Position numbers and translations under genes: made by a program
Part shown: positions 1 through 23,906 of the stretch, piece by piece
Numbering within the stretch: the stretch's first letter is position 1
How the letters are laid out: every line of letters starts with the position of its first letter
Notes under the pieces: generated by a model
Told to the model about the DNA's origin: nothing
Seen by the model: only the letters and a program-made list of their open reading frames with translations
Databases searched by the model: none
Origin: Candidatus Altiarchaeota archaeon
GTDB taxonomy: Archaea > SpSt-1190
Direction of reading: 5' to 3'
Assembly (NCBI GenBank): GCA_018220935.1
Contig: JAAOXU010000030.1
Coordinates: forward strand, 1 to 60,364
Length of the DNA stretch: 60,364 bases

Positions 1-3000
1 CTAACAGTTCAAGGAACTCTAACTCATAATCTTGAAAATCCAGACGGTGAAACGTATCTTAAGGGCGTAAACATCTCAATACGAGGAAATGTGACTAATG
101 ATTGTAATATTGGTATGAATTCAATTTATACTAACTTCACTCAAAAGAGTGATTTTACTAGTGAAGAACTTAAGTGTTCACCAATAAATGATGAAGGGGA
201 TGGGTATTACAATTGTACGTTTAATACCAGCAACATATCACCAAGGTGGTATGACTTAAGTTTTAATGCAAGTGAAATTTATTACCACGACAATAATAAA
301 ACACTAAACAATAAGTTCTTTGTTGAGACTGAGCCAAGTGTAGCAAACACAAAAGTCAACACAAGTTCTTATGATGGTGATGACGGAGTTATTGGTGGAT
401 ATTCAGAAATTTTCAATTATTCGGTTTTTGTTACTGATGTTGATGGAGACACATTAACGGCGTGGTTATGGCTTAGAAGTTGGAACCAAACTTCAGGAAA
501 TTGGACTAATTGGACTTTCGAGAATACTAAGTCTTGTGTTGATTGTAACAACACTTTACTTTACTCAGAAAAATTAAATTTCCTTTGCTCAGACCTAAAA
601 GATTGGCAGTTCTTATGGAATGTTACTGATGACCCTGATGATCCGTTACCAGGAGAAACAACTTACTTTGATGAAGATATTCCTAAAAATTTCACCATTG
701 AACAAGATGATGTACAAGTTAATTATTATGCCGGAGATGGTGGTACTATTTGGAGAAACGGAACAGATTCAAGAGTATTGAGTACCGAAATTTGGGATGT
801 TGATGATCAACGATACCTATCAACTGGAGAAGCAGATGGATTTTTCTGGATTACAGTTAATGGAACTGATTGGGATGGGGCACATGCAGTAGGAACAATC
901 CAACGTTTCTTTAATTACACTTACAACCCAGATTGTTCATACTTTACAGGTACACAAAAATGGGTTTCAGGAACAGTAAGTAATACCTGTTTTAAGGACG
1001 TTAATTCAAGTGAATTTACAGCAACACTACAAACATACCTACAAGGATCAATTGATACACCTGACGGGGAACCATACCAAAGAGGTCAACCAATTCCATT
1101 TAACATGTATGTTGAAGATGAATGTTCAGTTGGAGTTGAAAGTCTCACGCGTCAACTACATCTATACGTAGAAGGTAATCAATATGATATAACCTCAGGA
1201 ATAACTGACCCAAGTAATGGTACATACACTTACTCTTGGGACAGTGCACTAAAGACTCTCGGAAATTACAATGCAACATTTGAAGTTTCAAAAACAAATT
1301 ATGTCGCGCAAAATATAACAAAAATCTCAGCGTTTGATTTAGGTGAACCTCCCGAACTACAATTACAAAGTGTTGATAGATTGCTTGGTGGTTGGGGTGA
1401 GACTTGGAAATTTAGTGTTCAATGTAGAGACCGTGAAGGGGATACAGATCAAGTTCAATTATGGATTAAAAAGAATGCAACCGAAAATTGGGAAATGATT
1501 CAAGAACAAAATTGTACATCTGGTTCATATGTTGTTAAAGATTTCTTTGAAGTTTTCACATGTTCAGATATTACCCCAATAGGAGATGACGCACAGTGGA
1601 AGTTTAACGCATCCGATCAATGGGGCTTTACAGATGAGACCGCAATTGGTACTGTTGATATTGAAAAAGATGATGTTTCAATGTCACTGATTGCAGGACA
1701 TAACAATTTAATAAACCGAGAAAGTAATCCAACACTTTACTTATCTGTTAGAGCATATGACGATGATAAACTTGAATATTTACCAACGGATAGAAATGGA
1801 ACGTTCTATATTACAACTAATGGTACTGAATTTGATTCCGGAAACACAAGCGTTACTAATGCAACAGGTCACTTAGTTTACAACTTTAATCCATCTTGTT
1901 CATATGAGACAGGCCTACAAAATTGGAAAGGTGGAATTGAAAATGATGTATGTTACAAAGATTCATTTAGTCCAGATTATGACTTGAGTGTATATGGACA
2001 ATTAAAGAACGCCATTGAGATTCCCACATATGGTAGTATTTTCCAGACAACAAACCCTATAGATATAAGACTAAACGTGAGCACCGATTGTTCTGCAGAA
2101 GGCATAATAAACAGCACTAACGTGAATATAACACTAAATTCACCCCTTGATGATTTAGAGAGTTGCACCCCAGTTAATAATGAAGGGGATGGCTGGTATA
2201 ATTGTACATGGGATAGTTCATTTAGAGCACCAGGACTCTGGGACATCGGAACTAATTCAACTAAATCCTACTTTAATTTTAATTACACTAACTTAGTAAA
2301 TTGGTTTGAGTTACAAAATAAACCAACTAATTATAGTGATGTGAACGTTACACTTAATTCGTCAGGATGGGGTGCACCATTTAATTATTCGGTTAATGTC
2401 ACGGATGATGATACTGATGATGTGAATTGTACACTTTATGTTTCACTAAATGGTGGAAGCAGTTTTGAATCAAAGGGTCTCCAACTTATTACAAATGGAA
2501 CTGGAATTTGTTACTTTGACTTACAAAGCTTTACTTGTGCAGATATAGGAACAGACAACCAATATTACTTCCAATTAAATGATGGATATAATTCAGTTCA
2601 AACCCAAACAGAAGCAGGACCAACTATGACAAAAGACAGTCTTACGATAACACATCTTGATGGGAACGGTGGAACTGTTAATAGGACTATTACGAGTTTA
2701 TTGTTAAAAGTCAATGTCACTGATGATAACACTGGTAGTATTGCCCAAGACAATTTACCAGTTTACTTTAACATAACTAATAACGGATTAAATTATACAC
2801 AAGAAGATATTGATAACACAACTTTAGGTGTTTCTCAAATTACATTTAATCCTACTTGTTCATATGAAGTTGGAGTTCAAAAGTGGTTTACATACTTTGA
2901 AGAAGATTCTTGTTTCTTTGCAGCTAACACGAGTGAATTCAATTTGACAATATATGGTAAAATAACAAACACAATAATTTTACCAAATGGTACAGAACAT

Positions 3001-12000: not shown

Positions 12001-15000
12001 GTTCCTGAAGTGTTTGAAACTGATGTGTATTACAGTGATATATTTGTGAATGGAACTGAATCATCACAAGTAGTAAAACTTTGGGTTAGAGTACCCCTTA
12101 ATATGTCGTGGGATCATAACACAACTTCAATAAGTAAAGTTTTAGTTCAAGGAGAACAAGGGGACTTTGGAACTGTGGGAATTAGGAATTTGGGGAATGT
12201 TCTCGCAAAGATTAATTTGAATGTAACTGGTAATATTACAGATTCAATAATTGTTGATAAATTTTACTTTGAAATGCCAATTGATGGATCAGATCAAGTC
12301 AATATTAAGTATAATACATCTGAATCATACTTTAGACAAGATTTAGTAGGTGAGATAGTAACATATAACGATACCGCAAATATTACAGAACAACGAACTA
12401 ATTTATCTATGACAATTCACCCACTTTGGGTGACTACGTTAAACCCAACAGAAACAAATCCAAAAATAGGTGTCTTTAACGGAACTAATATTACAGCAAC
12501 AATTAGCGCAACTTATGGTTACTCCATCATTACTTCAGGGATTGCATTTAACGCATCGCTTAGACGAGGAAATACGTATTATGATCTTAATCAAACCTAT
12601 AAGTACAATGTTACAGATTTCGTATGGTACTTAAATTTCACAGCACCACAACTAAACTACAGTATAGGTTATGATTTAGTTATAACCGGAAATTATAGTT
12701 TATTTGACATAGCAAAAACAAATATTCAAGACAAAGCAATAGTCTACAATGATACAGTAAATCCAATCGTACTAATAAGTGCACCCGGAAAAACAGGCAT
12801 AAATGATACAGCAGTAATTTATCTTAATGCAACTGATGCAGGCGGTGTTAAAGACGCCACAATGACAATAACATTCCCAGATACCATATCAAAAATAACT
12901 ACGGCAATGACTTATCTTTACAAAGTTAACGACACGTATGTATTTAGACTCAACTTTAATGATACACAACAAGAGGGAGTGTATGGTGTTAGTGCTGAGG
13001 CGTGTGATTATTCAGGTAATTGTGGTATAGGAATAAGTCAATTCACAACTTTCCCATTCGCACAATGGCACGGTAGAGCACTTGATGTTGATAGATCAGA
13101 CACAGTACCAATAAATCTAACATTTAACTTATATGAAGAATTAACAGATAATTCACTTTTCTTTGTATATCCAAATGAAACGGGTTACTATAATGAAACA
13201 ATTGATGCGAGAAGATATGATATTGTAACAAACTATGAGAATGTTACTACAAAATTATATGGTGCAAGAGTATTTGGCGATATTGAGAATCCAATAGTAC
13301 ACGGAGTTATACCAGGGAGTATGATAGGTTTAGGAACTTATGTGGGACTTGACTTTGAATCTAACCTGACTTATGATACTGCAAGAATTACATTTGACTA
13401 TGCCGACTTTGCAGGTGTTTCTGCAAATAATTTAGGAATTTATGAGTGTGAGAATTGGATAAGATTCCAAGGATGTGGTGGTAATTGGACCAGAATGATT
13501 GGCACAGTTATTGATTTAGGTAAAGAACAAGTGTATGCAGTAGTTACAGCTTTTGAAGACGCATACATAATGTCTGAATATGTTTGTGGTAATCAAGTTT
13601 GTGAAACTGGATATGGTGAATCACTTGCAACTTGTCCACAAGACTGCCAAGTTAGTTCACCTTCACCAACTGAACCAGGACCAAGTGACGGAGGCGGTGG
13701 AGGTGGAGGCGGCGGAGGTGGTGGAGGTGGAGGCGGCGGTGCTACACCAACTGACGAATTAGCACCAATTCCAATTGAATTTAAGGCACCCGTAATTGAT
13801 GTTACAGTATATCCAGGTGAGAGTAAGGTATTTGGTATTGAGATTACTAATAACCAGATTAATTCAACTGAAGGTATAATTTATGCAGAAGGTCCAATTT
13901 GGTCCTTACTTGAATTCCAATTTGATGAGTTTACTGTTGAGAATAAATCAACTAGAACCATTCAAATTAGTGTTAAACCAACTAATAATGTAACACCAGG
14001 AGTTTACACAGGAGACATCGTAATAGAAATTGGTAGCCTAAAACACAGAATCCCTGCATCAATTGCAGTTGAAATACTCCAAGAGCCACTACTTGACGTT
14101 AATGTGAAGATGCTCACACCCACAGTTAGACCAGGAGAGGATCTGAAGTTTGAAGTAACTCTAATTAACATGGGTGGAACTGAAGAAGTTGAAGATATTG
14201 TAATTAATTATACTGTAAGGACTCTTGAAGGTGATGAGACTCTAATCACGATTGCTAGTGAAACAGTTGCAGTTGACAATATCAACAGATACATCAGAGA
14301 AGTTGCAATACCAGAAGATGCAGAAGAAGGTCGCTATGTGATTGAAGCGACTGCAAGATATTGGTATGGTAGAAAGTATGCACTTAGTACTGATAGTTTT
14401 GACATAACAATTGAACCAGCAGCAATAACTGCAATAAGAAAAATTTTCGGTTGGTGGGTAACTTGGGTATTAATGTTCATTTTAGCACCAGTTGCATACT
14501 TTGGTGGTCAGTGGGTAATTGATTATTATAGAAAGTGGAAGGCCGCAAAAGAGAGTAAACAAAGATATACATTACCAGTTGATATGGATGAACTACCAAA
14601 AGCAGGTGGTTCGGCAGTTAAAGTTGGTAAATTGGCTGGAACTGAACTTGATGCTTGGTTTGATTTAGATGATTTAATGACGCACGCAATTGTAGCTGGA
14701 GCTACAGGATCTGGAAAAACAGTAAGTGCAATGGTAATTGCTGAAGAAGCACTAAAGTCAGGTAAGTCCATGGTAGTATTTGACCCCACAGCACAATGGA
14801 GTGGTTTCTTAGCACCAAATAAAGATCAGAAAATGATTAAACACTTCCCAGAATTTGGTCTAACTGAAGAAGATTCTAAGTCCTTTAAAGGATTAATCTT
14901 TGAGATCACCGATCCAGAACAAATTATGAATATTGACTTTAAGCAATGGATTAGGCCAGGAGAAATCACAGTATTTACACTAAATAAGTTAACGACAAGT

Positions 15001-15777
15001 CAGTTTGATGCAACAGTAAGAAATATTATTGCAGTATTCTTCAAACAGGTTTGGGAAGAATCAAGTGAACTAAAGACTTTAATCGTATTTGACGAAGTCC
15101 ACAGACTCTTAGAAAAATATGGTGGTCTTGGAGGATATGTTGCACTTGAAAAGGCAGCAAGAGAATTCCGAAAATGGGGTCTTGGTTTAATGGTTATCTC
15201 TCAAGTTTTAAGCGATTTCAAAGAAGCTGTTAAAGGTAACGTATTAACTGAAGTACAAATGCATAGTAAAGGTACTGATATCGAAAGAGTCAGAAGTAAA
15301 TATGGTGATGAATACGCTGAAAGGCTAATCAGACAAGAAATTGGTGTTGGGTTCTTACAAAATCCAAGATATAACAGAGGTAAACCTTGGTTTATTAAGT
15401 TTAGACCTTTAATCCACAGCCCACATAAATTATTGGAAGAAGAGTTAGAGACATATAAGAGGTTAGGTGCAATAATCTGGGCAATTAGAGATAAAGTTAA
15501 CAAGATAAAGGAGAAAGGTAAAGACGCAGGCGATCTAGAAATGGAACTAAAATTAGCTGAAGATAAATTAAAGAGTGGTGCATTTAGAATGGCTGAGATT
15601 TATCTTGAAGGTCTAAGAAAGAAAGCTGGAATTACTGATGTTAATGCTGCAATTGGCGCTAAGAAAGGTAAGGGCGGCAAGAAAGGAAAAAAGGATAAAA
15701 AAGATAAAAAGGAAACACCAACAAAAGTAAAGACTAAAAATGAACCAGAAGAAAAAAAGGAAGTGGATAAGAAATGA
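1..15777 (+). CDS. Giant repetitive surface protein with C-terminal TM helix and cytoplasmic HerA/FtsK/VirB4-like (DUF87) ATPase; 5'-partial
   Basis: Frame +1 is open from base 1 (LTVQGTLTHNLENPDGETY...), so the true start lies upstream. Contains ~330-aa repeats, dense N-x-S/T sequons, CGNQVCE..GE...CPQDC, a Gly17 linker and a TM helix (~14443-14520). Walker A GATGSGKT (14698-14721), Walker B LIVFDEVH, AREFRKWGLGLMVISQ, Lys-rich tail. Confidence 0.92.
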   Translation, partial: LTVQGTLTHNLENPDGETYLKGVNISIRGNVTNDCNIGMNSIYTNFTQKSDFTSEELKCSPINDEGDGYYNCTFNTSNISPRWYDLSFNASEIYYHDNNKTLNNKFFVETEPSVANTKVNTSSYDGDDGVIGGYSEIFNYSVFVTDVDGDTLTAWLWLRSWNQTSGNWTNWTFENTKSCVDCNNTLLYSEKLNFLCSDLKDWQFLWNVTDDPDDPLPGETTYFDEDIPKNFTIEQDDVQVNYYAGDGGTIWRNGTDSRVLSTEIWDVDDQRYLSTGEADGFFWITVNGTDWDGAHAVGTIQRFFNYTYNPDCSYFTGTQKWVSGTVSNTCFKDVNSSEFTATLQTYLQGSIDTPDGEPYQRGQPIPFNMYVEDECSVGVESLTRQLHLYVEGNQYDITSGITDPSNGTYTYSWDSALKTLGNYNATFEVSKTNYVAQNITKISAFDLGEPPELQLQSVDRLLGGWGETWKFSVQCRDREGDTDQVQLWIKKNATENWEMIQEQNCTSGSYVVKDFFEVFTCSDITPIGDDAQWKFNASDQWGFTDETAIGTVDIEKDDVSMSLIAGHNNLINRESNPTLYLSVRAYDDDKLEYLPTDRNGTFYITTNGTEFDSGNTSVTNATGHLVYNFNPSCSYETGLQNWKGGIENDVCYKDSFSPDYDLSVYGQLKNAIEIPTYGSIFQTTNPIDIRLNVSTDCSAEGIINSTNVNITLNSPLDDLESCTPVNNEGDGWYNCTWDSSFRAPGLWDIGTNSTKSYFNFNYTNLVNWFELQNKPTNYSDVNVTLNSSGWGAPFNYSVNVTDDDTDDVNCTLYVSLNGGSSFESKGLQLITNGTGICYFDLQSFTCADIGTDNQYYFQLNDGYNSVQTQTEAGPTMTKDSLTITHLDGNGGTVNRTITSLLLKVNVTDDNTGSIAQDNLPVYFNITNNGLNYTQEDIDNTTLGVSQITFNPTCSYEVGVQKWFTYFEEDSCFFAANTSEFNLTIYGKITNTIILPNGTEHYQGEDNVTFRANFSDQCNNLIDPEYVNFSYTHQDTASEDYCSPSVNESFGYYNCSIETTNLSTRWYDTEVYANKTLHTPNIETETQAFWIETRPNITLVSVVSEQGGGIGGWGESWTFKVNVTDWDKDAVKVWFWDRPASGGDWEILSPFGVTKAVGIESQIVTFIYNGYTCSDFTGGANREWFVNGTDDPSEPISEQDITNTSVSTHSLERNDVEILHNQGNGSSLNRSNVTNGETVTLKVQIRDTDKDASVNTQDTSKFLVTTDGFSFTQDLQLATIEPGGYVTDDFPSIAECTYGISLQKWKVEFGETCYKTTQSQEWNVTLKTDPIEVILYTPKGDPYRQGIDDIEFYGGAYDDCGGVTNADLTFEAIQNDNTYVCSGTQGVGNGNYTCNITNTGAWLLGNYNATMNASKQGYNDSVVLLVEDGIKLATQPSLVGFFVSTSDGGNSYGWGEYWDFQVDFFDSDQLVYDYEVANITLWYFNDSQWILLNSTTCSAPTCRLTETRHFYRDFTCSDIGSNIPFTLNITDYWNFTETWNFNQDIITDDVLLTVIQSPTYVSRENQTVLIQVRGTDQDAGHLLGASINGSFEVTTNGSGTWSVPIYNQTDSGGYLSYNFNPGCGYNVGNQDWRSQIETACYSTTAIGPASGFMDVIGQLKNNITYPTNGSSYYVTDLVNFTFNISDECNENWQPISDAYLNITFNSTNGLNATFDQNNTTYVGEGLYNFSWITDFHEGGLWDVKLTSQKEYYYSNQTDFTDYIYLNNTPAVAENFSVTPTTEGWGRTFTFSADIMDSEQDNITCKLFVTTDSGSTWIYKDEQVITWGVGTCELNVTDFNCADIGTDNYYRFEIDDGTQENIFNTSYTQGPNITADDVYLEYLDGNQTVVSRYGINETLLSFRVYDQDQSNLTISGIQTTYWVTRDGSTYVSHTGTTTNSSGHSNYDFDPVCDPLYSQGIQNWRAGVTDSCYVGTNLTETYQLTIMGSLTNDLDYIYKIGVPTAPPVNLTRDEEDLQADIHITDDCSLDVDAANVNVTWISEYSNEYNCTVSGIGSGAYRCDMPTNNTRARWYDISMNSSKQPYYYDNLAFVQSNVLFVQTRPVVTNLTCLNCPGGWGEVFEYSVTLTDEDLDNVTAKLFVKKPGSIFSFELNVTNVSSPIINKTVILSIPDSTFTCPDHLGIGEFKFEVQDNRGLVRSNQTNYSVERDDVRFEMYNGDTEMVWRNGTGYVFLSLDLYDDDRNISLPSGLGGNVWVTVNESYWDAGKGIATNSTGNFNYNFMQELPPSGQRCDYSLGPQWWRGWINDTCYKDTYSQNYTTTIMSELIPQTIIPDGEGYIVGDKMLIAGTVGDDCPALVENVTAEYKLKRGSNTYTCSISNNFNWTENSGWYNCTWDSASRVKGWYDITLNVSKTYYANNGSIKTSAFFLGEPPVLENPLIDHSYGGWGEQYGFQVIFSDPDYHANNLSLWISSDNSTWNLKDSKSAIGVQATVQFIERFTCGDISIFPNGTRYWKITAVDPFNYSDETPVFEINFTTDNVTVVVQSSSNDTVRRMGANDAFLEFLIYDTDLDVYPNDTSSLVWITENFTNYTILKTCTSTNGYCNVTHDPVCASSIGDQLWIGATNDSCYQVLNSTPGTLEVIGQLYAQPERPSEGQIINRNTTELFNTSVVDECSELVNGATVNWYDDSDNSIGNGYEVNWSIPNGFELGGETITTNTSKTSYDPGTNSTNIYVYGWAIITDIQPPDSTQIEAGTTAQITCEVKDKNIGSPLPTYSVDFYKNETFQDTKATGIDGIATWQWNTNTEPFGWYNISCLIGNEPSMFYNYSGGLNTTILQVRRLLKFSYVTPTPYQFYRNDSFTPHETYLEAKVTEAQTGPSEDSNITFYNQTYELIGWCITNPQGECNVTFNASDTTIPDIYTVYANATKSGAEPSVTNSTTIKVQAKMSANITDPVNDSAWTKGNVINLIVVVKDENNQNITSADVFWYNESNEVAQGLSTTLNLNTQDTGWRNLTVEIRKNCANSPSTECYDREYGETIIRIDGLSGVRWLSPTAQPVSPWTQITVLEAENFSCEVYDTITSQKIFNYSTEMWYQFDVGDWVKLGSFYSGHNGNVTQTFIPQVKGDLTFKCNITDDISKLYTVDIAEASATFEVIDDVPPTIYDYYIYPTSGLEAYQDNTTIYTTISDNIGVSTAWAAIELPNTTFVTKSFVRYPYPNTFKFVDLENSTNITHVENISEPGRVSFFNLTIENNETFDAYFNVSVNGILVFDNVSLINSTNTTIDLVENYTFSSAGEFNLSVMFFNASSEPLNLSHVSWINYTVHSDRYNVSYVPLIGGTHNVVIYAQDLPPENNLASQAAGSFNAGGITNVTVNLTPAYQPAFGITQLDDFTYIVTANITNWGPVTAINVSLNITDSSIDYMSYNITNASCGNLAANSSCVHYVLTTVKEKTPPAFIQISYNVSWVNPDRGFNTTIGITEVEVAENPILNTSEIAVFAEASHQKMTYIGNITVESQGNTPIFDISIYTVGGDLFTKCAECDLTIVPDVQGLVSAGDSFRADLWLDVPWGQDPGIYLTNLRVNTSNAAYKDVLLNVTVPWNNSWNRAPSTYGTILALLNTNVTLGNVTANNVGNVRLDFINYVSGTGAPMVNITPRIFGLPKINSKDITVSYSVEPDSIEGIYPVVITLRPEDQAGNQADPFDNIVTFTLNVTDLPPLIEDIVVEPQNFEVSFDTVNINATITDNFVVAEAWINLTLPNGTDYIKFMNNESSHYFTTYNTDTIGFYKLKICANDTRFLSGCTEVINLTANANTTIKFEPESSLTVTNARWLDDINYTFNYSLRNSGYSRAFNVSADYSTFEGWVVYPSEFNTSILLKQETYNDSMYIEVPAATVAGNYTFNFYANWTNYDNSTGENTTNLTIEVLENTLIEATPSEINLTIINKEKKLQIIQILSAGNVPVQNVSISCVSGLICNNMTVNITPQLIGDMPQGTLALVNLTIEVPEVFETDVYYSDIFVNGTESSQVVKLWVRVPLNMSWDHNTTSISKVLVQGEQGDFGTVGIRNLGNVLAKINLNVTGNITDSIIVDKFYFEMPIDGSDQVNIKYNTSESYFRQDLVGEIVTYNDTANITEQRTNLSMTIHPLWVTTLNPTETNPKIGVFNGTNITATISATYGYSIITSGIAFNASLRRGNTYYDLNQTYKYNVTDFVWYLNFTAPQLNYSIGYDLVITGNYSLFDIAKTNIQDKAIVYNDTVNPIVLISAPGKTGINDTAVIYLNATDAGGVKDATMTITFPDTISKITTAMTYLYKVNDTYVFRLNFNDTQQEGVYGVSAEACDYSGNCGIGISQFTTFPFAQWHGRALDVDRSDTVPINLTFNLYEELTDNSLFFVYPNETGYYNETIDARRYDIVTNYENVTTKLYGARVFGDIENPIVHGVIPGSMIGLGTYVGLDFESNLTYDTARITFDYADFAGVSANNLGIYECENWIRFQGCGGNWTRMIGTVIDLGKEQVYAVVTAFEDAYIMSEYVCGNQVCETGYGESLATCPQDCQVSSPSPTEPGPSDGGGGGGGGGGGGGGGGGATPTDELAPIPIEFKAPVIDVTVYPGESKVFGIEITNNQINSTEGIIYAEGPIWSLLEFQFDEFTVENKSTRTIQISVKPTNNVTPGVYTGDIVIEIGSLKHRIPASIAVEILQEPLLDVNVKMLTPTVRPGEDLKFEVTLINMGGTEEVEDIVINYTVRTLEGDETLITIASETVAVDNINRYIREVAIPEDAEEGRYVIEATARYWYGRKYALSTDSFDITIEPAAITAIRKIFGWWVTWVLMFILAPVAYFGGQWVIDYYRKWKAAKESKQRYTLPVDMDELPKAGGSAVKVGKLAGTELDAWFDLDDLMTHAIVAGATGSGKTVSAMVIAEEALKSGKSMVVFDPTAQWSGFLAPNKDQKMIKHFPEFGLTEEDSKSFKGLIFEITDPEQIMNIDFKQWIRPGEITVFTLNKLTTSQFDATVRNIIAVFFKQVWEESSELKTLIVFDEVHRLLEKYGGLGGYVALEKAAREFRKWGLGLMVISQVLSDFKEAVKGNVLTEVQMHSKGTDIERVRSKYGDEYAERLIRQEIGVGFLQNPRYNRGKPWFIKFRPLIHSPHKLLEEELETYKRLGAIIWAIRDKVNKIKEKGKDAGDLEMELKLAEDKLKSGAFRMAEIYLEGLRKKAGITDVNAAIGAKKGKGGKKGKKDKKDKKETPTKVKTKNEPEEKKEVDKK
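385..7950 (+). repeat. Eight diverged tandem ~330-aa (~990 bp) protein repeat units within the giant CDS
   Basis: GGYSE/GGWGE/SGWGA/GGWGE/YGWGE/EGWGR/GGWGE/GGWGE motifs at ~394, 1387, 2362, 3328, 4351, 5341, 6337, 7327. Units recurrently carry F.C.D, DDV, FNP.C.Y..G.Q.W....CY and G.YNC motifs. Confidence 0.88.
13690..13740 (+). repeat. (GGN)17 poly-glycine linker
   Basis: 17 consecutive Gly codons with mixed third positions, following the Cys motif and a Ser/Pro/Thr stretch. Confidence 0.95.
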
Positions 15778-16475
15778 AGTGGTTAGTAATTGCAATGGTT
15801 TTAGTTAGTGGATTTGCACTTAACTATAGTTATGATGGTTTAATTTATTCAACACCGGGAAAATCTATAGTATTACCAATTCACATTCAAAGCCTAGATG
15901 AGGAAGGGTTGTATGAAATAAATTGTTTCTCAAAGGCAAAAGTGAATTGTCCTGGTAATTTTTTTGTTAGTGCTAACAAAGAACAAAGTTTTGATGTTTT
16001 AATCACCCCCGAATTAGGGAGTCAAGTAGTGAATATAAAAATTGGAAGTGATTTTTTAAAATTTGAAGTAATTGGTTCAACTCAAACAGAAGTATTTCTC
16101 ACACGGTTAAAAAATTATGATGATTCTTTTTTTAGACTCGAAAAAACATATGGTGAACACACTGCAATTGATGATGCTAAGTTATTGATTAGAGAAGGTT
16201 ACATTGCATATGGATTGAATGATTTTGATGCAATGGACGGTATAACTCGTAATTTAGGTAGTATACTTAGTAATTATTATGATACACTTGATCCAATTGA
16301 TTTATTTGAAGAAGAAACACCATCAAAATTAAATTTTTCAGTTATTCCGTTGTTGTTATTAGTGAGCTTTGTAGTAATTTTGTATATAAGGCCAAAGAAA
16401 GAGATTAAGAGGACTTATGTTGATGAACTCACATCTTTAGTTAAAAAGGAGGAATATAATATTGGCATCCGCTAA
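15774..16475 (+). CDS. Small exported membrane-anchored protein (signal peptide, Ig-like beta domain, helical segment, C-terminal TM)
   Basis: ATGA overlap with the giant gene's stop codon. N-terminal MKWLVIAMVLVSGFA; C-terminal VIPLLLLVSFVVILYI followed by RPKK. Confidence 0.8.
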   Translation: MKWLVIAMVLVSGFALNYSYDGLIYSTPGKSIVLPIHIQSLDEEGLYEINCFSKAKVNCPGNFFVSANKEQSFDVLITPELGSQVVNIKIGSDFLKFEVIGSTQTEVFLTRLKNYDDSFFRLEKTYGEHTAIDDAKLLIREGYIAYGLNDFDAMDGITRNLGSILSNYYDTLDPIDLFEEETPSKLNFSVIPLLLLVSFVVILYIRPKKEIKRTYVDELTSLVKKEEYNIGIR

Positions 16476-17634
16476 AAAACCAAAAAAAACAGCAAAAAAG
16501 GCATCTAAGACTGTTAAGAAGGTTAAAGTAGAGAAAAAGACCCCAGAAGAGACAACAGAAGAAACTCAAGAAGAAGAGAGTCAAGAACAGACTATTGGGG
16601 ACATTGTTGAAGAAGAAGGGTTAGTAACTGAACCAGATCGAGAATCAATGCTCGGAAAAGACGCAGCGCCAGATATCTCAGAACTTTTAATGCGAATTGA
16701 CCGAATTGATGGTAAGCTCGACTTATTCAAAGGTATGCTTGATTCATTTGGTGAACGAATTTCAGATATGAATGAAAGATTAGGGGACACTAGACGAATG
16801 GTGTTTGACAGAGAAAAATGGGCAAGTAAATTAGAAACTGAATTTGAGAAAGTATCTAGTATTGTAAAAGAACTTGATCCCGAAAAAATAGTTTTAAAAT
16901 TTGAAAAATTCAAAACAGGTATTGATACTCAAGATGCAAGAGTAAGTAGACTAGATGAACTTCAAAACAATGCAAATGAAAGAATGAAATTAGTTGAAGA
17001 GAAATTAGTGAATATAAAAAGTCTTGATAATATTATGAAGGCTGCTGAACTTGTTGATAAAAAAATTAAGGAAATAGAAGATACTAAAAATTATTCAGAT
17101 AAACTAGCAGCAAAAGTTGAATCTATGTTTTTAGAAATTAATGATAAGGTGAGTTATCTAAAAGATAATGTGAGTAAACTTCAAAAAGTTGACTCATTAA
17201 CTAATGATGCTACAAAAGAAATTGAAAGTATTAAATTTCAAATTGATCAAGAACTAGTTAAAAGAAAAGATGCAGATGAATTAATTGATTCAGTAAAAGA
17301 TATTATTGTTGAGGAAATTGTCGGGATTAATCCTGCAGCATTTGACAGTTTGCGTCACAGAGTAACTTTAATGGAGAATAAAGATAAAAGTAGTAAGTCT
17401 CTTGAAAATGAAATGGGTAAATACTCAGGCTTAATGGATAAAGTTGAACGAGACTTTCAAATGGGTAGATTAAAAGACCAGAGTTATGGTGAAATAAAAA
17501 AGAGCACTGAAAAGAAAATTGCTGAGATTAAGTATGTGCTCGAATTACGTTCAAACAAACCAAATAAAGCACCTCAAAAACTCAAAGAAAAGTTAATTAG
17601 AACAGTCAAGGAAGACCAAAAAAGAAATAAGTAA
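16462..17634 (+). CDS. Cytoplasmic long coiled-coil protein with basic then acidic N-terminus
   Basis: TTG start preceded by AAGGAGG, overlapping the upstream gene. Heptad-like K/E/L-rich helices, no TM segment, SHOCT-like ERDFQMGRLKDQSYGEIK near the C-terminus. Confidence 0.8.
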   Translation: MASAKKPKKTAKKASKTVKKVKVEKKTPEETTEETQEEESQEQTIGDIVEEEGLVTEPDRESMLGKDAAPDISELLMRIDRIDGKLDLFKGMLDSFGERISDMNERLGDTRRMVFDREKWASKLETEFEKVSSIVKELDPEKIVLKFEKFKTGIDTQDARVSRLDELQNNANERMKLVEEKLVNIKSLDNIMKAAELVDKKIKEIEDTKNYSDKLAAKVESMFLEINDKVSYLKDNVSKLQKVDSLTNDATKEIESIKFQIDQELVKRKDADELIDSVKDIIVEEIVGINPAAFDSLRHRVTLMENKDKSSKSLENEMGKYSGLMDKVERDFQMGRLKDQSYGEIKKSTEKKIAEIKYVLELRSNKPNKAPQKLKEKLIRTVKEDQKRNK

Positions 17635-17636
17635 AT

Positions 17637-20600
17637 TTATTTTATTAGTCCTTTTAATTCTTCAAATGTTTCTCTGGATATCATACCCTCTTCATACTGG
17701 TCTTTTAATGCGTCATAAACATCTGAATATTCATTTTCTTCTCGTGACCTAATAAGAGTATTTTTAATTTTAAGTAAGGATGTTCGTCTCTCTTTATCCT
17801 TAAAGACATTAAATTTCTTAAGAGCAATTACAGCCACAAGTCCAATTATTGCGATAAATATTAAGATAAGATACCACTTAGTTGGAATTTGTGGGAGCAA
17901 AATAGTTGGCAAAAAGTCAGGTTTTGCAATTTCTAATCTATATTTAATTTCTTCAATCACACTTTCTGCTTCAGATATCGTTTTTATAGCATCAACCACA
18001 CTGTCTTCGAGTAGGTAAGTATCAGCAACTTCTAGTAGTTCCCTCGATTTTCTAAGTAAGGATAATATTTTTGTAACGTCCCCACCTCTAGCAGCAACTT
18101 TCCCAGTCTGGTCTTCTAAATCAAGTAGTTCGCTCTGAAGTGTATTAATCCTCGCACGAAGTGCTTCTTCTTGAGTTTTAAATACAAGTATTTTATAGAA
18201 TTCTGAGACTTCAATTTCTTTAGCAATTATTCTTAGTTTAGTAACGTATGTCCTAGCTGATGCTGAATCGGGAATTGAGAATTTAACTACTAAGTAACCA
18301 TTTGAACCCGCACTCAAAAGATCAATATCACGTACTACTTCAAACCATTCTTTTTCAATATCTTCAAAGAAGACTGTGATAGCAGTTAAATCAATATTAC
18401 CTGTGTTTTTTAGTTCAATGGTGAGGTATCCTACTGAGCCTCGATTTAATATTAGTTGATCAGGGAAAAGATTAGTTACAGTAAGTTCAATAACTGCCGC
18501 TTGAACTGGTTCGAGTATTTCAAGTGGTTCTCCTTCAGTAGTTGCTGCAATTACATTAAATGTTCTTGAAACTTCAATTGGCGGACTAACTGTAGAATAA
18601 TTAAGTAGTACGTTTAGAGTATAGTTTCCTGGAAGTTGGTTAGAGAAAATATTAAGACTTCTATTAAGAGTTCTGTTACCTCCTGCGGCCACAAAAATAG
18701 CTTCCCCCTTAACTTCGTCATATTTTACGTTGTCTTTTTCAACCCAATAAGATACGAATACATCTTGACCAAAATCACCCATGTTCTCAAGTAGTATATC
18801 AAAATCTTGAGACGTACTGACTTCAACTTCAGGTTCAATATTAAGAATTACAACGTCAAACGGTCCCCCGTATGTGACCCTAAATGATTCTAACTTTTTA
18901 ATTTGTCTCCCCCCTTCTTCAAGAGTCAAAACTGCCAAATAATATCCAACAGGAGAATTAACTGGCATTGCAAATGAATAGGTGTAGAGTGTACTCGTGT
19001 TAGTTGCATCAAACTGACTAAACGATTCTGTTGAGAAGTAAATGTTTTGTGCAGGATCATACACAGTAAGGTTTATTTTTTCTGGAGGGGGGAAAGGCCT
19101 ATCCCCATATGTTAGCACATAAAAGTTCATAGTAGAATCAGGATACCAAACTAAACTTGTATCAAATTCAATATTGTAGTCTTCCCTTGCTTTAAATTGA
19201 TAGGTTGCATTTGCGTATACTGTTTTATTTGCAATCCCATCATAGTGAGTTCCATTCACAAATACAGTATAGTTCCCAATTGGTGCATCACTTGCGAGAC
19301 TAAAAGTAGGAATTGGCTCAACTTTTCCAGGTGTACTTAATTCTTCTAAATATCGCAAATCCCCAAATGGATCGTGTATAAAAATAGAAAGATTAGACGA
19401 AATTAAAGTGCCTGCATAATCAGTAGAGTTTACGTATAATGATACAGTCTCACCTAAAAAGTAAGTTCCGTAAATGGTTTCAATTGGAATTTCAAGAAGG
19501 GGATATATGTATTTTGTAATATTTACCCTAGAAGTCAAACCAAGATTATCTTGAATTTCAATCTGAAAAGTGTAGTTTCCAAATACATCACTAATTCCCC
19601 CTACAGTTGGATAATCAGTTGAATAATAGTAGGTTACATTAAATTGGCTAATTAGGTTTAAGTTAATAAATTCAGTTCCATTATTGGGTTTAAAGACCAC
19701 AATTCTTGAGAAGTTTAAACCCTGAGCCGATTTATCAGTAACGTTTACGTATATTGTAAAAGTTTCTAGTTCTTGAGAAAGATTAACTGAAAAACTCGTA
19801 TTTATTTCTGCTAGTTCTCTTGGGATCATACTTAAGTTAAAATAATCCCAAGAAGGTGTACCACCCTCAACACTAATGTTATATGTAGCATTATAGTAAT
19901 CTCTAGCAACCCCAGTTATATTCCAAAGAAAATCAATTAAGTAGGTGGTTTGTTTTGGGATTGTGAAGTTAGTTGTATTTGGAAATGTATAGTTTGATGT
20001 TTCGGGTGATATTGAAAAATTCAAAGGAACGTTACCAGTATTATTAAAGAAAACACCACACATAGTTCCTAAATCAAATGCAACAGGAGTTGTACAATTT
20101 TGTGGAGAGTGTTCCCACGTTTTGGAAGTTGGAATTGTAACATTTAGAAAAACTTCATCATACCCACCACCAGAACTAGTAACGTTATTAGTACCTAAAT
20201 AATATCCAGGGATATAACCTGCAGGAATTGTAACATTAACATCAATATCAGTAATATTACCCGCAGCAAGTGAACTTATGACGGGATTAAATACAAAGGT
20301 AAAATCGGGTAAATTCAAAACGTTAGTTCCCATACTAGTTACTTGATCATTTCCTGTGTTGATTAGTGTGTAAAAACCAATTACAGTTGAAGTACCATGA
20401 GTTGCATTGTTTGCAATAAAACTTTGATTCACAATAAATTCTTGATGTGAACTTACGTTTATTGATACATCAGTAACATTATACGACACACCAACACCAG
20501 GATTAATCCAACTGACATTTGCACGAATTATATACGTCCCAGGGGATGAACCCATCAAACCAACATTAAAGGCACTCTCACAATATTCATTTATTTGAAG

Positions 20601-23297
20601 ATCACCACAAGAGTATTTATTATTAGTTAGATTGGTTGTCCAATTATTCTCAGGTAATTCGATTGTTAGATTTGTGGCTTGTGCAACAGTTGTACCCAAA
20701 TTTGTAGTATTAAGTACTAAAGTAAAATTTTCAAAGGTATACCACCGCATTAAAGTTGAATTAAATTCGGTCGGAATAGTTTCTATACCTAAGTATGTGA
20801 CAAAAATATTTAGTGAAATATTAGTAAGATCGTATGTATTAAATCCAGATGCATTCAAAACACCGTTAGATTCCCCAAGTGGTTGAGCATCAGGAACAAA
20901 TGCCCAAACACTAACTGAAACATTTTCACCTTGATTGAGCGCCGAAATATTTGAAGGTGTAAAATTAAAGGTCATATTTTCAAGACCAGTTACATTAAAT
21001 GTTAGATTCTCAAAAGGATAATTCCCAATAGACAAAATTGAAAGGTTTGTAAGATAATTCCAGTTACCAGGGGAAACAGTTTCATTCACAAGGGTCTCAA
21101 TTATTTCAATTACAGGGTTAGGTTCAATTGAAATGTTAAAGGTATTGTTAATTTCATCAAGCGTGTTGTCTGAATTTCTCCACCTTGTTGTCGTATTAAG
21201 GATATAGTATCCTGGCGTTGTATTTTTAGGTGCACTAATCTCAAAATATAGGGGATCAGAATAACCTAAATTCAAATCACTTGCAGTTGAAAAACTTGTG
21301 TTTACCCACCATAAAAGTGGGGGATAAATTGTAATATTAGTATCATATGAAGTTCCATTTCCTAGATTAGTTATGTTTGAGAGCATAGTAAAATTATACC
21401 GATTATTTAGTGTTGCATTATCTCCACTCCCTTCTGCAAAGTTCATCACGGTCGTGACACTTGTAGTATATTCAATTGCAATAAATTGATCATTACCACT
21501 TCCAGTATTGTTTAACTTAGTAGAATTACAAACTAAATCAAAAATGCTAAATGACGAAGGTGCTGTAAAATTAATAAAGTATGTTCCGTTGTCATAATCA
21601 GTTACATTCTCAAATGCATCAACCCCTTGCCCATATGTACAATTAATAGTTGCACCACCAATAAATGAATCATCACGATAATTTGTAAGAGTGAGTGTTG
21701 AATTAATAGTTCTATCCACAAATCCATAGTCATTTAGAATTGTTAGGTTTGAGGTATATGTATTTTGAATATTAAAACTAGAATTACTAGTGTTTAGGAG
21801 TTGATTTAGTTCACCCCAAACATATGAACTAAAATTCCACAAACCCGTTGAGTTTGATACATTCACAGTAAACCAATTAGTGTATAAGTCATCATCAGCA
21901 ACTTGATCACCATTAGTCCCATCATCATATAGAATAGTCTCAAAAACACCACCATCAGACGTAATAGTTGCGTTAACAAGGTCTATAAGGCCTGAATCAG
22001 TCGTTGCATTGACAAAAACAGTCACATTTTCACCCTTATTAAAATCAGAATAGTCTGTTAGAGCGTCTATTATTACAGTCCATTTTTCAGATAAAGTTTT
22101 AGTGGTATTTTCAGGAAATACAAGTCGATCTCTTAAATTTCTAACTTGTGCATCAGTTGGGGAACCACGAATCCAAGATGGGCTGTTAAAGTGCAAGTAA
22201 CCAACATCATAAATAGTTTCATTTTGTGTGAGGTTTGTCGTTGATAATTCAATACCACCCCGTCCAATACTTGAATTTTGATTTACTGTTGCGAAGTTTC
22301 CGCTATTAAATAAATTGATTATACCTACATGAAAGTTTGCAAATTCAGCAGCAAACCAATACCATGAACCCGGTTCATTAGCATTACCAATGATAATATT
22401 TGCAAATGCAATTTTTGCAACTTCAAATGCAAGTGCACCCGCATTAGTTGAATTTCTACTAATGTTATACGCTGCAAGGTTAGTATATTCTTGTTCAACT
22501 TTTACCCATTGACTCTGGTTGTAAAAGGTATATGTTTTTTTCATCATACCTTCTTGTATATCCGTGGTATTCCAGATGACTTCAGGTCCAACTAAATCAG
22601 TAACGACTCTAATTGATCCAGCATATTTTACAGTTAAATTATTTTGAAAATCAAATGTGAAATTATGAGTATCGTTACTGTATTGTGTATATTCTAGTGG
22701 ATTTTCAGTTTCAGTAGGTACTGTCCAAAACTCATTACCATCAGCATCTCGTATACGATATATACCTGAAATGTTTTCTCCACGAGACGTATCAAGATAA
22801 TATTCAAGGCCCTCATATGAACCGCTGTAATAAATTGAGACATTAATTAAGAATTCTTCACCATCCCAAAGGTAGGAAATATTCTCATAATTTGTTGGTG
22901 TTTTGTCATCAGTATCATAGTAAAGACAATATGTTTTGATTGTAAATGTAGGTATAGTACCATTCATTATCCAAACAAGTTCACCCTCAAAATTATCAGT
23001 ACTATTAAATTCATATGAAGGGTCAAATTGACTTTCAATTTCATACAGATATGCACCACTTGACGTATTTTGTTCAATTAACCTAAAAGATGAAATGTTA
23101 ATTGTTCCCGGAGCGCCTGTTGACTGTATCTCTTGTGTGAGGTTAAGACTAAATTCAATAGGCCAATACTCACGGGAATAATTAGACGTATTCACTTCCA
23201 AACAAACTCGGTAATCCCAAGATGCGTCCCACCAACTAAGCTTTGCTAGGGCAGGTAAAGTAATCATAAACAGCAATAAGGCTAGCCTTAACCTCAC
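17637..23297 (-). CDS. Large membrane-anchored surface protein (DUF2341-like N-terminus, Ig/CARDB-like domains, helical bundle, TM, SHOCT-like tail)
   Basis: Signal peptide MRLRLALLLFMITLPALA; WWDASWDYR motif; LYDDGTNGDQVADDDLYT (choice-of-anchor X-like); repeated N.GN Ig motifs; TM WYLILIFIAIIGLVAVIAL; tail LKDQYEEGMISRETFEELK. Confidence 0.88.
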   Translation of the reverse strand: MRLRLALLLFMITLPALAKLSWWDASWDYRVCLEVNTSNYSREYWPIEFSLNLTQEIQSTGAPGTINISSFRLIEQNTSSGAYLYEIESQFDPSYEFNSTDNFEGELVWIMNGTIPTFTIKTYCLYYDTDDKTPTNYENISYLWDGEEFLINVSIYYSGSYEGLEYYLDTSRGENISGIYRIRDADGNEFWTVPTETENPLEYTQYSNDTHNFTFDFQNNLTVKYAGSIRVVTDLVGPEVIWNTTDIQEGMMKKTYTFYNQSQWVKVEQEYTNLAAYNISRNSTNAGALAFEVAKIAFANIIIGNANEPGSWYWFAAEFANFHVGIINLFNSGNFATVNQNSSIGRGGIELSTTNLTQNETIYDVGYLHFNSPSWIRGSPTDAQVRNLRDRLVFPENTTKTLSEKWTVIIDALTDYSDFNKGENVTVFVNATTDSGLIDLVNATITSDGGVFETILYDDGTNGDQVADDDLYTNWFTVNVSNSTGLWNFSSYVWGELNQLLNTSNSSFNIQNTYTSNLTILNDYGFVDRTINSTLTLTNYRDDSFIGGATINCTYGQGVDAFENVTDYDNGTYFINFTAPSSFSIFDLVCNSTKLNNTGSGNDQFIAIEYTTSVTTVMNFAEGSGDNATLNNRYNFTMLSNITNLGNGTSYDTNITIYPPLLWWVNTSFSTASDLNLGYSDPLYFEISAPKNTTPGYYILNTTTRWRNSDNTLDEINNTFNISIEPNPVIEIIETLVNETVSPGNWNYLTNLSILSIGNYPFENLTFNVTGLENMTFNFTPSNISALNQGENVSVSVWAFVPDAQPLGESNGVLNASGFNTYDLTNISLNIFVTYLGIETIPTEFNSTLMRWYTFENFTLVLNTTNLGTTVAQATNLTIELPENNWTTNLTNNKYSCGDLQINEYCESAFNVGLMGSSPGTYIIRANVSWINPGVGVSYNVTDVSINVSSHQEFIVNQSFIANNATHGTSTVIGFYTLINTGNDQVTSMGTNVLNLPDFTFVFNPVISSLAAGNITDIDVNVTIPAGYIPGYYLGTNNVTSSGGGYDEVFLNVTIPTSKTWEHSPQNCTTPVAFDLGTMCGVFFNNTGNVPLNFSISPETSNYTFPNTTNFTIPKQTTYLIDFLWNITGVARDYYNATYNISVEGGTPSWDYFNLSMIPRELAEINTSFSVNLSQELETFTIYVNVTDKSAQGLNFSRIVVFKPNNGTEFINLNLISQFNVTYYYSTDYPTVGGISDVFGNYTFQIEIQDNLGLTSRVNITKYIYPLLEIPIETIYGTYFLGETVSLYVNSTDYAGTLISSNLSIFIHDPFGDLRYLEELSTPGKVEPIPTFSLASDAPIGNYTVFVNGTHYDGIANKTVYANATYQFKAREDYNIEFDTSLVWYPDSTMNFYVLTYGDRPFPPPEKINLTVYDPAQNIYFSTESFSQFDATNTSTLYTYSFAMPVNSPVGYYLAVLTLEEGGRQIKKLESFRVTYGGPFDVVILNIEPEVEVSTSQDFDILLENMGDFGQDVFVSYWVEKDNVKYDEVKGEAIFVAAGGNRTLNRSLNIFSNQLPGNYTLNVLLNYSTVSPPIEVSRTFNVIAATTEGEPLEILEPVQAAVIELTVTNLFPDQLILNRGSVGYLTIELKNTGNIDLTAITVFFEDIEKEWFEVVRDIDLLSAGSNGYLVVKFSIPDSASARTYVTKLRIIAKEIEVSEFYKILVFKTQEEALRARINTLQSELLDLEDQTGKVAARGGDVTKILSLLRKSRELLEVADTYLLEDSVVDAIKTISEAESVIEEIKYRLEIAKPDFLPTILLPQIPTKWYLILIFIAIIGLVAVIALKKFNVFKDKERRTSLLKIKNTLIRSREENEYSDVYDALKDQYEEGMISRETFEELKGLIK

Positions 23298-23400
23298 AAA
23301 ACCCTTAAACGGCTTAGATTAAAAGCATTAACCCTGAATTAAGGTTTTTTTCACAAAAGAACAAAGAAAAAGTATTTACTGGGCAATTGAGACACGGAGT

Positions 23401-23565
23401 TCAGTTTAATTTGGCTAAATCGTGTTCAAGAGCATGAACCTCAAATGGTGCACCCTCCTCCCCATCATCCTCAAAATAGTCTGCCATGAGCATGTTTAGA
23501 ACTATATCTAGTTTCTTTTCCAATTCCTTTATCTTTAATTCCAGGTTTTGTAGCTCTTTACCCAT
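23401..23565 (-). CDS. 54-aa hypothetical protein (N-terminal coiled coil, acidic tail); not in ORF track
   Basis: Translates to MGKELQNLELKIKELEKKLDIVLNMLMADYFEDDGEEGAPFEVHALEHDLAKLN*. Minus-strand TTTATA box ~23 nt upstream; fills an otherwise empty gap. Confidence 0.7.
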   Translation of the reverse strand: MGKELQNLELKIKELEKKLDIVLNMLMADYFEDDGEEGAPFEVHALEHDLAKLN

Positions 23566-23649
23566 AACTTCGTAGAAAACTCAAGCAATATAAGATTAAC
23601 TAAAAGAAGTGGAAACTTTATTAACTAAAACGTGGGTTACATATTTGTT

Positions 23650-23721
23650 GCCCTGATAGCTTAGTGGTAGAGCGCCTGGCTGTTAACCAGGAGGTCGCAG
23701 GTTCGAACCCTGCTCAGGGCG
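23650..23721 (+). tRNA. tRNA-Asn(GTT)
   Basis: Acceptor GCCCTGA/TCAGGGC, anticodon arm CCTGG-CTGTTAA-CCAGG, T-loop GTTCGAA; CCA not encoded. Confidence 0.97.
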
Positions 23722-23727
23722 CTTAGG

Positions 23728-23761
23728 CTTTTTAGTCAACTTTTTTCCGATAAAAGGTTGC
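23728..23761. repeat. Dispersed palindrome family, copy 1
   Basis: CTTTTTAGT-CAACTTTTT-TCCGAT-AAAAGGTTG, immediately after tRNA-Asn. Confidence 0.7.
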
Positions 23762-23789
23762 AATAACTTAAAAACTACAAAAACCGAAG

Positions 23790-23821: not shown

Positions 23822-23824
23822 CGT

Positions 23825-23905: not shown

Positions 23906-23906
23906 T

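Follow-up and report, generated by a model that had tools for sequence, protein, structure and literature searches.

A SPEARE-type giant protein with a HerA-like ATPase domain and its candidate partner proteins in a DPANN archaeon

DPANN archaea rely on direct contact with host cells, and their mode of attachment and exchange is an open question. The most conspicuous candidates for this contact are the giant SPEARE proteins, hitherto treated as single proteins of unknown function. The locus described here, at one end of contig JAAOXU010000030.1 (assembly GCA_018220935.1, deposited as Candidatus Altiarchaeota archaeon SpSt-1190), raises the question of whether such a giant acts alone or as one subunit of a larger machine. 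The window, that is, the whole stretch of DNA analysed, is the complete contig (bases 1-60364; 60,364 nucleotides) and belongs to a genome of 0.85 Mb in 37 contigs, 88% complete and with ~35% G+C. Its first four genes code for a giant protein, a small membrane protein (p233), a coiled-coil protein (p390) and a large surface protein (p1886), the last three named after their length in amino acids (aa). We lean towards the view, held with some reserve, that the four products belong to one conserved SPEARE-type assembly that spans the membrane and contacts the host.

By its domain order the giant is another member of the published SPEARE, or giant membrane-anchored, family, in an Undinarchaeota-like DPANN archaeon, with a long extracytoplasmic part, a single transmembrane (TM) helix near the C-terminus and a P-loop domain followed by helices (346-409). 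The giant proteins that its cytoplasmic domain retrieved at E<=1e-3 number 128, range from 2891 to 9202 aa and include some with the labels Pacearchaeota, Aenigmarchaeota, Woesearchaeota, Micrarchaeota and Nanohaloarchaea; to one of the last label, a 7,378-aa DUF87 protein, the domain is 47% identical. An exhaustive phmmer search with the same domain returned 885 cluster representatives, of which 345 reached E<=1e-30, and the domain was located toward the C-terminal end in each of the 150 best matches listed. In species-representative genomes we found 533 stretches with confirmed relatives of the ATPase, the closest labelled Undinarchaeota; breadth is taken from this search, the phylum-wide one having reached 17 genomes. 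The original prediction, made from the letters of the window, had taken the apparatus as a whole to be undescribed. This has to be given up for the motor plus stalk, because their architecture matches published SPEARE/giant membrane-anchored proteins, for which a role as a secretion "straw" has already been proposed (PMC6642349, PMC10266531). What differs from the nanohaloarchaeal loci, and appears to be unpublished, is the set of partners around this ectodomain-TM-ATPase core (p233, p390 and p1886). No description of the coiled-coil partner or of accessories with a stalk base and a SHOCT-like tail was found in the literature searched, supplements and figures being outside the search.

The ATPase domain and its coiled-coil neighbour

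Pfam assigned the cytoplasmic part of the giant to DUF87, the HerA central domain (E 1.2e-9, 39.1 bits, cut-off 23.2). ResIII (E 1.6e-6) and T4SS-DNA_transf (E 1.5e-5, 24.5 bits, cut-off 20.1, P-loop region only) also passed their cut-offs, and the VirB4 N-terminal domain PF03135 (CagE/TrbE/VirB) was not among the Pfam matches of the giant. The best NCBIfam row was CedD (E 1e-12), with 47.5 bits against a cut-off of 600 and covering the P-loop only, and the rows for HerA_Thermprot (42.7 bits against 800), VirB4_CagE (21.4 against 643) and TraG-Ti (18 against 686) likewise stayed below their cut-offs. When a profile of 43 homologues was searched against the PDB, Sulfolobus HerA (4d2i) came first with an E-value of 7.3e-14, followed by other HerA proteins, with DotL (0.0075), FtsK (0.019) and TrwB (0.42) far behind.

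The AlphaFold2 (AF2) model of the cytoplasmic segment gave the same grouping. It has a mean predicted local distance difference test score (pLDDT) of 83.8 and a predicted template-modelling score (pTM) of 0.79, and runs from a long N-terminal helix, which comprises the TM and the linker, through two short strands to a core of RecA type, followed by three helices (346-371, 377-391 and 395-409) and a disordered Lys-rich tail. Compared with the PDB by Foldseek, it matched best the HerA hexameric translocases (E 1.3e-12, TM-score ~0.46), and then antiphage HerAs, DndH-C, the STIV2 B204 packaging NTPase, the TcpA coupling protein and FtsK. None of the 43 aligned homologues deviates at G100, G105, K106, E232, R235, R254 or R257, and D231 of Walker B is nearly invariant (at least 90%). 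As judged by these profiles and motifs, the domain belongs to the FtsK-HerA superfamily, with its catalytic residues intact and HerA as its closest kin, and falls outside both VirB4 and VirD4.

The gene p390 codes for a predicted cytoplasmic coiled-coil protein. Its N-terminus is first K-rich and then acidic; the motif TIGDIVEEEGLV-EPDRE is conserved, as are, without exception, one R and one E within the coiled coil. Its AF2 model (pLDDT 77.5, pTM 0.29) consists of helices 72-137, 140-184 and 188-286 and four shorter ones. A profile search against the PDB returned generic coiled coils only (best E 0.0015), and no structure reached E<=0.001 in a Foldseek search with the model, which ranked hairpins of ribosomal proteins first. 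In a large protein database p390 is a "hypothetical protein" without Pfam family, NCBIfam has no family for it either, and in the ESM Atlas its closest clusters consist of unnamed hypothetical proteins from archaea. Within the p390 family the Pfam matches were to coiled-coil families of low specificity (Baculo_PEP_C in 21 of 59 members, BLOC1_2 in 12 of 59). An ESCRT-III/PspA-like reading was also considered and found no support.

What makes this protein relevant is its position. We surveyed the best-scoring 80 of the 533 loci, mostly from Aenigmatarchaeota, calling p390 when a hidden Markov model (HMM) match at E<1e-15 lay on the strand of the ATPase and started between -100 and +1500 nt. Seventy-five of these loci were informative, their sequence extending 900 nt or more beyond the last ATPase open reading frame (ORF), and in 68 of them a p390 homologue was found directly 3' of the ATPase, at a median gap of 19.5 nt. 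Actually, all 73 strong p390 matches in the surveyed loci adjoin the ATPase: these 68, four partial ones with short flanks and one on the opposite strand. The reverse search, in 41 relatives, found p390 in 13 genomes and next to the ATPase in 9 of them. Elsewhere p390 was ~1.5 kb upstream of the inferred start of the giant (G035), at a contig edge, the two genes closing one contig and opening another (G015), or 565 nt and 328 nt from the contig end that faces the missing ATPase (G009 and G013). Furthermore, in the family of the studied genome all four loci that hold the ATPase keep the order of the cassette, one of them being cut by a contig end: the end of the ATPase, a membrane protein of 233-259 aa, a coiled-coil protein of 392-719 aa and a convergent protein of ~1900 aa. 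Chance adjacency of ATPase and p390 is rejected by the linkage counts in both search directions, and p390 can be regarded, from this gene order, as a near-constant partner of the motor across many archaeal lineages. Conservation of the neighbourhood, on which the original prediction had staked the unity of the cassette, was thus found for all three smaller genes, which co-occur with giant ATPases, most strongly so p390. A complex of the ATPase cytoplasmic domain with p390 predicted from our own alignments had a score of 0.00 (mark 0.32) and gave no verdict either way.

Two side observations concern the same survey. Pairs of giant ATPase and p390 were seen in L049 and L096, labelled Hydrothermarchaeales (one on a 1.9-Mb contig), and in metagenome-assembled genomes labelled Heimdallarchaeota, Methanosarcinales and Methanobacteriota; these non-DPANN labels reflect either a spread of the pair beyond DPANN or binning errors. 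In addition, 5 of the 80 loci (L047, L058, L071, L084 and L091) have a second ORF with TM helix and ATPase (551-1500 aa) between giant and p390.

The extracellular parts and the cytoplasmic tags

The giant carries 253 N-X-S/T sequons in the 4814 residues ahead of the TM helix and none in the 418 cytoplasmic residues, and an outside-in topology fits because all sequons precede this helix. Self-BLAST of the giant gave no off-diagonal match and a motif-anchored alignment was used instead to compare its tandem ectodomain modules (Table 1). Identity within the 21 module pairs is 25-36%, and they align with scores of 163-480, where shuffled controls give 35-60. Pfam found nothing in aa 1-2500; its matches in the ectodomain were to beta-sandwiches of NEW3-like and MG2-like type, with weak MG2 and Nis1 matches near the last beta-sandwich. 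This last domain (aa 4600-4689) is also matched by the profile HMM of the p233 type (positions 32-110, domain E 1.1e-7). At the C-terminal end of the protein, 22 of the final 63 residues are K or R and pLDDT is below 50 at residues 416-458; this lysine-rich tail is kept in the orthologues of G005, G002 and G004 and not in distant ones.

Base 1 of the contig falls inside the ORF, so the assembly truncates the 5' part of the giant gene, which begins outside the window. In the relative G005 the orthologue, with an ATPase 78% identical, runs through 14,695 codons without interruption and starts with a signal-like N-terminus (G005:C1:17161-61249), and the 5258 codons of the window may be perhaps only the last third of their gene. 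The G005 frame is longer than the 9,409-aa protein termed the largest of cultivated archaea (PMC10266531). It would take up ~5.5% of a genome of ~0.8 Mb and could reflect repeat-driven misassembly. The poly-glycine stretch (GGN codons) of the window draws many unrelated, loose-ended metagenome contigs and is likely to be a trouble point of assembly.

No Pfam or NCBIfam family was found for p233. By hhalign it matches the C-terminal module of p1886 (98.1%, E 9e-14, 163 columns), and this alignment identifies it as a stand-alone copy of the membrane-proximal, stalk-base module of p1886. The beta-sandwich next to the membrane is common to p233, p1886 and the giant, and the helical hairpin that follows is common to p233 and p1886. 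The latter, with 102 sequons outside and none in its tail, is predicted to be a "sister fibre" to the giant, a large type-I surface protein that is glycosylated. It contains a NEW3/CARDB-like domain (PF10633, E 6.5e-13), and its aa 751-1094 match aa 3311-3637 of the giant (27% identity over 357 columns, E 1.4e-17). Orthologues 40-56% identical are present in 4 of 4 family loci. From their distribution, p233 and p1886 are lineage-restricted accessories that occur on either strand, not universal parts.

Short helical motifs recur at the cytoplasmic ends of these proteins. The tail of p1886 has the motif ...QYEEG-[ML]-[IV]-S-R-E-T-[FY]-x-E-L-K, conserved in 12 of 12 aligned homologues, and is SHOCT-like in being short and helical and in following a TM helix at the cytoplasmic C-terminus. 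A degenerate SHOCT-like G-R-L-x(4)-S-Y-G-E-I-K is found in p390 at ~aa 335-346, without Pfam match, and distant p390 homologues have clearer copies. In other lineages, from loci labelled Aenigmatarchaeota and from others besides, p233-like proteins carry at their cytoplasmic end the C-terminal hairpin of the giant, L-K-L-A-x-D-K-L-K-x-G-x-F-R-M-A-E-x-Y-L, as if the tail tag of the motor had been copied onto the mini-stalk. Because such tags recur among them, the membrane proteins may dock on a common cytoplasmic partner, for which p390 is the obvious candidate.

The p233-like proteins that end in the hairpin motif were seen in L032, L033, L036, L040 and L060 and measure 305-336 aa. In the genomes of a sister family, several ORFs of 431-1525 aa near p390 (G013:C5:78399-91322, G014:C33:612-19157 and G015:C29:366-10109) match only the SHOCT-like segment of the p390 profile, at E 1e-6 to 5e-12, which suggests that membrane proteins with such tags cluster around the module.

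Table 1. Features of the four-gene cassette, in window coordinates.
Feature	Position	Strand	Details
Giant SPEARE-type gene, 3' part	1..15777	+	5258 codons, 5' end open (ORF list)
Tandem ectodomain modules of giant, at least 7 of ~330 aa	970..7900	+	GWG motif in each (aa 464 to 2444); motif spacing
Poly-glycine linker	13690..13740	+	17 residues (aa 4564-4580)
Membrane-proximal beta-sandwich of giant	13798..14067	+	aa 4600-4689; homologous to p233 beta-sandwich
Single TM helix of giant, predicted	14443..14520	+	aa ~4815-4840; hydrophobicity; long helix (segment residues 7-53) in AF2 model
HerA-clade P-loop ATPase core	14614..15435	+	Walker A GATGSGKT aa 4900, Walker B ...DEVH aa 5027
C-terminal helical bundle and hairpin	15436..15627	+	LKLAEDKLKSGAFRMAEIYLEGL; conserved family-wide
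Disordered lysine-rich tail	15628..15774	+	lineage-specific
p233 gene	15774..16475	+	233 aa (ORF list)
p233 protein regions	15774..16475	+	signal-like leader, one beta-sandwich, helical hairpin, TM aa 184-208, short tail
p390 gene	16462..17634	+	390 aa, start TTG (ORF list)
p1886 gene	17637..23297	-	1886 aa (ORF list)
p1886 TM helix and cytoplasmic tail	17640..17891	-	TM aa 1803-1832; tail ends ...QYEEGMISRETFEELKGLIK
p1886 stalk-base module	17892..18629	-	beta-sandwich and helical hairpin outside membrane; alignment, hhalign to p233

The locus, the proposed assembly and its alternatives

The next two genes are translationally coupled to the giant by overlaps. At the junction ...AAGAAATGAAGTGG the TGA of the giant and the start of p233 overlap as ATGA, and the TTG of p390 at 16462 lies 14 nt ahead of the p233 stop, with AAGGAGG ~10 nt upstream of it. 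The stops of p390 and p1886 face each other across 2 nt (TAA-AT-TTA). The ORF list and the junction reads agree with the four genes, both overlaps and the tail-to-tail gap as first described. Contigs from two other public runs, of two studies, span the cassette region at high identity, and because of this coverage the arrangement is not an artefact of a single assembly; one piece (17179-17787) crosses the p390/p1886 junction. These contigs come from sediment metagenomes, one labelled RNA-Seq but probably DNA, and contigs cannot reveal transcripts; for 13501-18500 no RNA data set was listed. Scans of 15000-24000 with bacterial models gave 36 promoter-like sites (37.1 expected) and one terminator-like site (4.4 expected) and are uninformative for an archaeon.

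The cassette is flanked by core genes: Maf, CysRS, aldehyde dehydrogenase, NIF3, PheRS alpha/beta, thermosome, UbiA, TruD, PolD DP1/DP2 and Cdc6. The relative G005 has the same genes after its own cassette. A mobile-element or island origin is ruled out by these flanks and the synteny common with G005. In the 600-nt spacer between the p1886 start and Maf there are a tRNA-Asn(GTT) (23650-23722) and a tRNA-Ser(GGA) (23824-23906). Every component of the cassette is present once in the genome. As the original prediction had it, no T4SS (type IV secretion system) or pilus core gene was recognised in the cassette by Pfam and NCBIfam scans, and in the 20 flanking ORFs these scans showed no recognisable gene for T4SS, pilus or MinD, the whole genome having been searched for DUF87 only. 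Pfam assigned no family at E<=1e-5 to three sizeable ORFs further along the window, 40663-43554 (-), 43538-44650 (-) and 45499-47109 (+), which are 963, 370 and 536 aa long.

In the assembly that we favour, the ATPase would form a ring under the membrane, like its HerA/FtsK relatives, with several giant fibres emerging at one site. The C-terminal hairpin of the giant and the SHOCT-like tail of p1886 would dock these membrane proteins onto the coiled-coil rod of p390, which would tie the cytoplasmic ends together, and the sister and mini stalks would gather with the giant fibres above the motor. At the contact with the host, ATP hydrolysis would thread a polymer, DNA or protein, as the nearest solved relatives do. 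By this analogy the motor most likely moves a polymer at the contact site, any one particular substrate being in itself improbable. The sequon split, the TM predictions and the models fit the arrangement first proposed: a motor inside the cell and a glycosylated stalk outside it, with ectodomain proteins as accessories and a coiled-coil protein in the cytoplasm. More tentatively, the locus could code for a trans-envelope machine, different from T4SS, Ced and pili, by which DNA or protein passes from symbiont to host or back. Equally tentative is the scope that such a machine might have: a HerA-type ring under a bundle of giant fibres, with the motor, p390 and the stalk-base/SHOCT-tailed proteins as subunits, widespread among DPANN and present in some Hydrothermarchaeales-labelled genomes.

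Several observations weigh against one conserved assembly. The contact between the proteins, the ATPase ring and the role in secretion or adhesion are what we infer from sequence. No nuclease, DNA-binding or pore-forming partner was recognised, though the nearest relatives of the motor move DNA. The same-strand pair of ATPase and p390 is missing in L030, L044, L053, L060, L066, L084 and L091 (the last with p390 on the opposite strand), and G030 has a 402-aa TM-ATPase without p390. Kin among the surveyed loci are not independent of each other, and coiled-coil composition may inflate the p390 profile scores, although position and strand favour orthology. The p233-type gene lies between ATPase and p390 in 11 of 80 loci, or 13 of 80 with two more small matches elsewhere, and a separate protein with stalk base, TM helix and tail was found within the flanks in 25 of 80; the counts of 13 and 25 lean high, many of the rows having supplied the profiles. 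The p1886 gene is convergent in the window, hence on a separate transcript, and in other lineages it lies on either strand. Finally, SHOCT (PF09851) is the best Pfam match of the p1886 tail at E 0.0034 and 17.5 bits, below the cut-off of 27, and reaches E<=0.01 in only 1 of 12 C-terminal 330-aa segments of the p1886 type and in 2 of 59 members of the p390 family. Of the SHOCT-like ends that had been attributed to two members, the one of p1886 is a sub-threshold motif; p390 lacks one at its very end, its degenerate motif lying ~45 residues before it.

Among the alternatives, one would make the giant a membrane-anchored pump for double-stranded DNA (dsDNA), of the HerA/FtsK type, that takes up or exchanges DNA at the host contact made by the ectodomain; analogues are FtsK/SpoIIIE, Streptomyces TraB and the crenarchaeal Ced importer. 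The nearest solved relatives of the motor are indeed dsDNA translocases and its best NCBIfam row, CedD, is a DNA-translocating ATPase, but this match is far below cut-off and covers the P-loop alone. The lysine-rich tail of the giant and the K-rich stretch of p390 could bind nucleic acid, but K-rich tails are confined to the lineage. DNA handling by the cytoplasmic part was proposed by Hamm et al. (PMC6642349), whereas a CedA-like channel, nuclease or DNA-binding domain was not found by Pfam and NCBIfam here, and one TM helix per subunit would be a thin basis for a channel. We regard a DNA conduit as unlikely.

To a similar degree we doubt that the locus makes a structural surface fibre and nothing else, with the giant and p1886 as adhesins or sheath and the ATPase and p390 inserting, positioning, tensioning or turning over the fibres, with no transport between cells. 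The repeated ectodomain represents most of the coding mass, the accessory proteins look like miniature or sister stalks, and extracellular and cytoplasmic parts were recovered in different size fractions, which suggests processing (Hamm et al., PMC6642349). However, the catalytic residues and p390 are conserved across phyla beyond what an anchor needs, and homologues almost without ectodomain exist (G030, 402 aa; L066, 385 aa).

Rather less probable is the T4SS-like effector straw of Reva et al. 2023, in which immunoglobulin (Ig)-like repeats bind the host and a VirB4/TraG-like ATPase secretes effectors (PMC10266531). The T4SS-DNA_transf match above cut-off speaks for it, although limited to the P-loop region, as do TcpA and FtsK among the fold matches. 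The tandem second TM-ATPase gene of five surveyed loci recalls the second VirB4/TraG-like ATPase reported downstream of the nanohaloarchaeal giants (PMC10266531). Against it, sequence profile and fold group the domain with HerA and not with VirB4/VirD4, the VirB4 row of NCBIfam is far from its cut-off and the CagE/TrbE/VirB N-domain was not found. Neither the cassette nor the 20 flanking ORFs contain another recognisable T4SS component, and the other three DUF87 proteins of the genome, one of them adjoining DnaG, are all HerA-like too.

Least probable by far is a defence system whose surface part senses virus attack: HerA-type ATPases are the cores of anti-phage systems (SIR2-HerA, DUF4297-HerA) and such complexes are among the best fold and sequence matches, but no adjoining effector (SIR2, nuclease) appeared in the Pfam and NCBIfam scans, the NCBIfam antiphage HerA row gave 19.8 bits against a cut-off of 800, and the locus is in conserved core-gene synteny, not in an island.

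If the favoured assembly holds, the constant p390 neighbour and the tagged stalk proteins recast a single giant adhesin as a testable multi-subunit machine, with small expressible handles in the ~400-aa ATPase domain, the ~400-aa partner and the 233-aa mini-stalk.

Comparison with known systems

The ATPase shares with HerA (4d2i) the RecA-like core, the Walker A and B motifs and the C-terminal helical region, at ~15% identity. An N-terminal HAS-barrel is a feature of HerA. The giant has instead the TM helix and the ectodomain at this place, and the HAS-barrel is absent from the AF2 model, where helix 7-53 and two short strands (72-78, 84-88) precede the P-loop core. HerA also differs in its NurA partner, of which there is none in the cassette of the giant, the neighbours p233 and p390 having no nuclease match in Pfam or NCBIfam.

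The membrane-anchored pumps of the FtsK-HerA superfamily (FtsK/SpoIIIE, VirD4/TrwB/TcpA and the crenarchaeal Ced ATPase) likewise have a membrane anchor and then a cytoplasmic ring-type P-loop motor that moves a polymer. Their sequence and fold matches to the giant are weaker, with E-values orders of magnitude worse than those of HerA. Unlike them, the giant has a single TM helix and an ectodomain of several thousand residues, and partner channel proteins were not recognised.

The closest likeness is to the SPEARE proteins, and here some differences have to be named. Reva et al. 2023 described a signal peptide, Ig-like repeats, a TM helix, a VirB4/TraG-like ATPase and a coiled coil, and proposed the secretion straw (PMC10266531). 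In our tests the ATPase of the giant is HerA-like, in contrast to this VirB4/TraG-like assignment, and such a placement bears on the published "type IV secretion" reading. Unlike the nanohaloarchaeal SPEARE loci, the gene 3' of the giant is the mini-stalk p233, and then p390, not a second ATPase. Hamm et al. reported regions similar to laminin-G, serine proteases and toxins in SPEARE ectodomains (PMC6642349), a claim disputed by Reva et al. (PMC10266531); no Pfam match to such domains at E<=0.01 was found in the visible 5258 aa of the giant, whose missing N-terminus could carry them.

The resemblance is otherwise close. Hamm et al. 2019 described nanohaloarchaeal SPEARE proteins of up to 8,553 aa that are mostly extracytoplasmic. 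Their TM helix lies close to the C-terminus, and the ResIII-type matches of the conserved part inside the cell are the source of "RE" in the name; SPEARE-like sequences were reported from Woesearchaeota, Aenigmarchaeota, Micrarchaeota and Altiarchaeales (PMC6642349). We have set the giant beside the SPEARE type proteins NAR1_1133, AQV86_04780 and SVXNc_0300 by domain description and through its Nanohaloarchaea-labelled homologues. Like them it has a long adhesin-like extracellular part, one TM helix on the C-terminal side and a cytoplasmic P-loop domain followed by a coiled coil, and like them it comes from a small DPANN genome.

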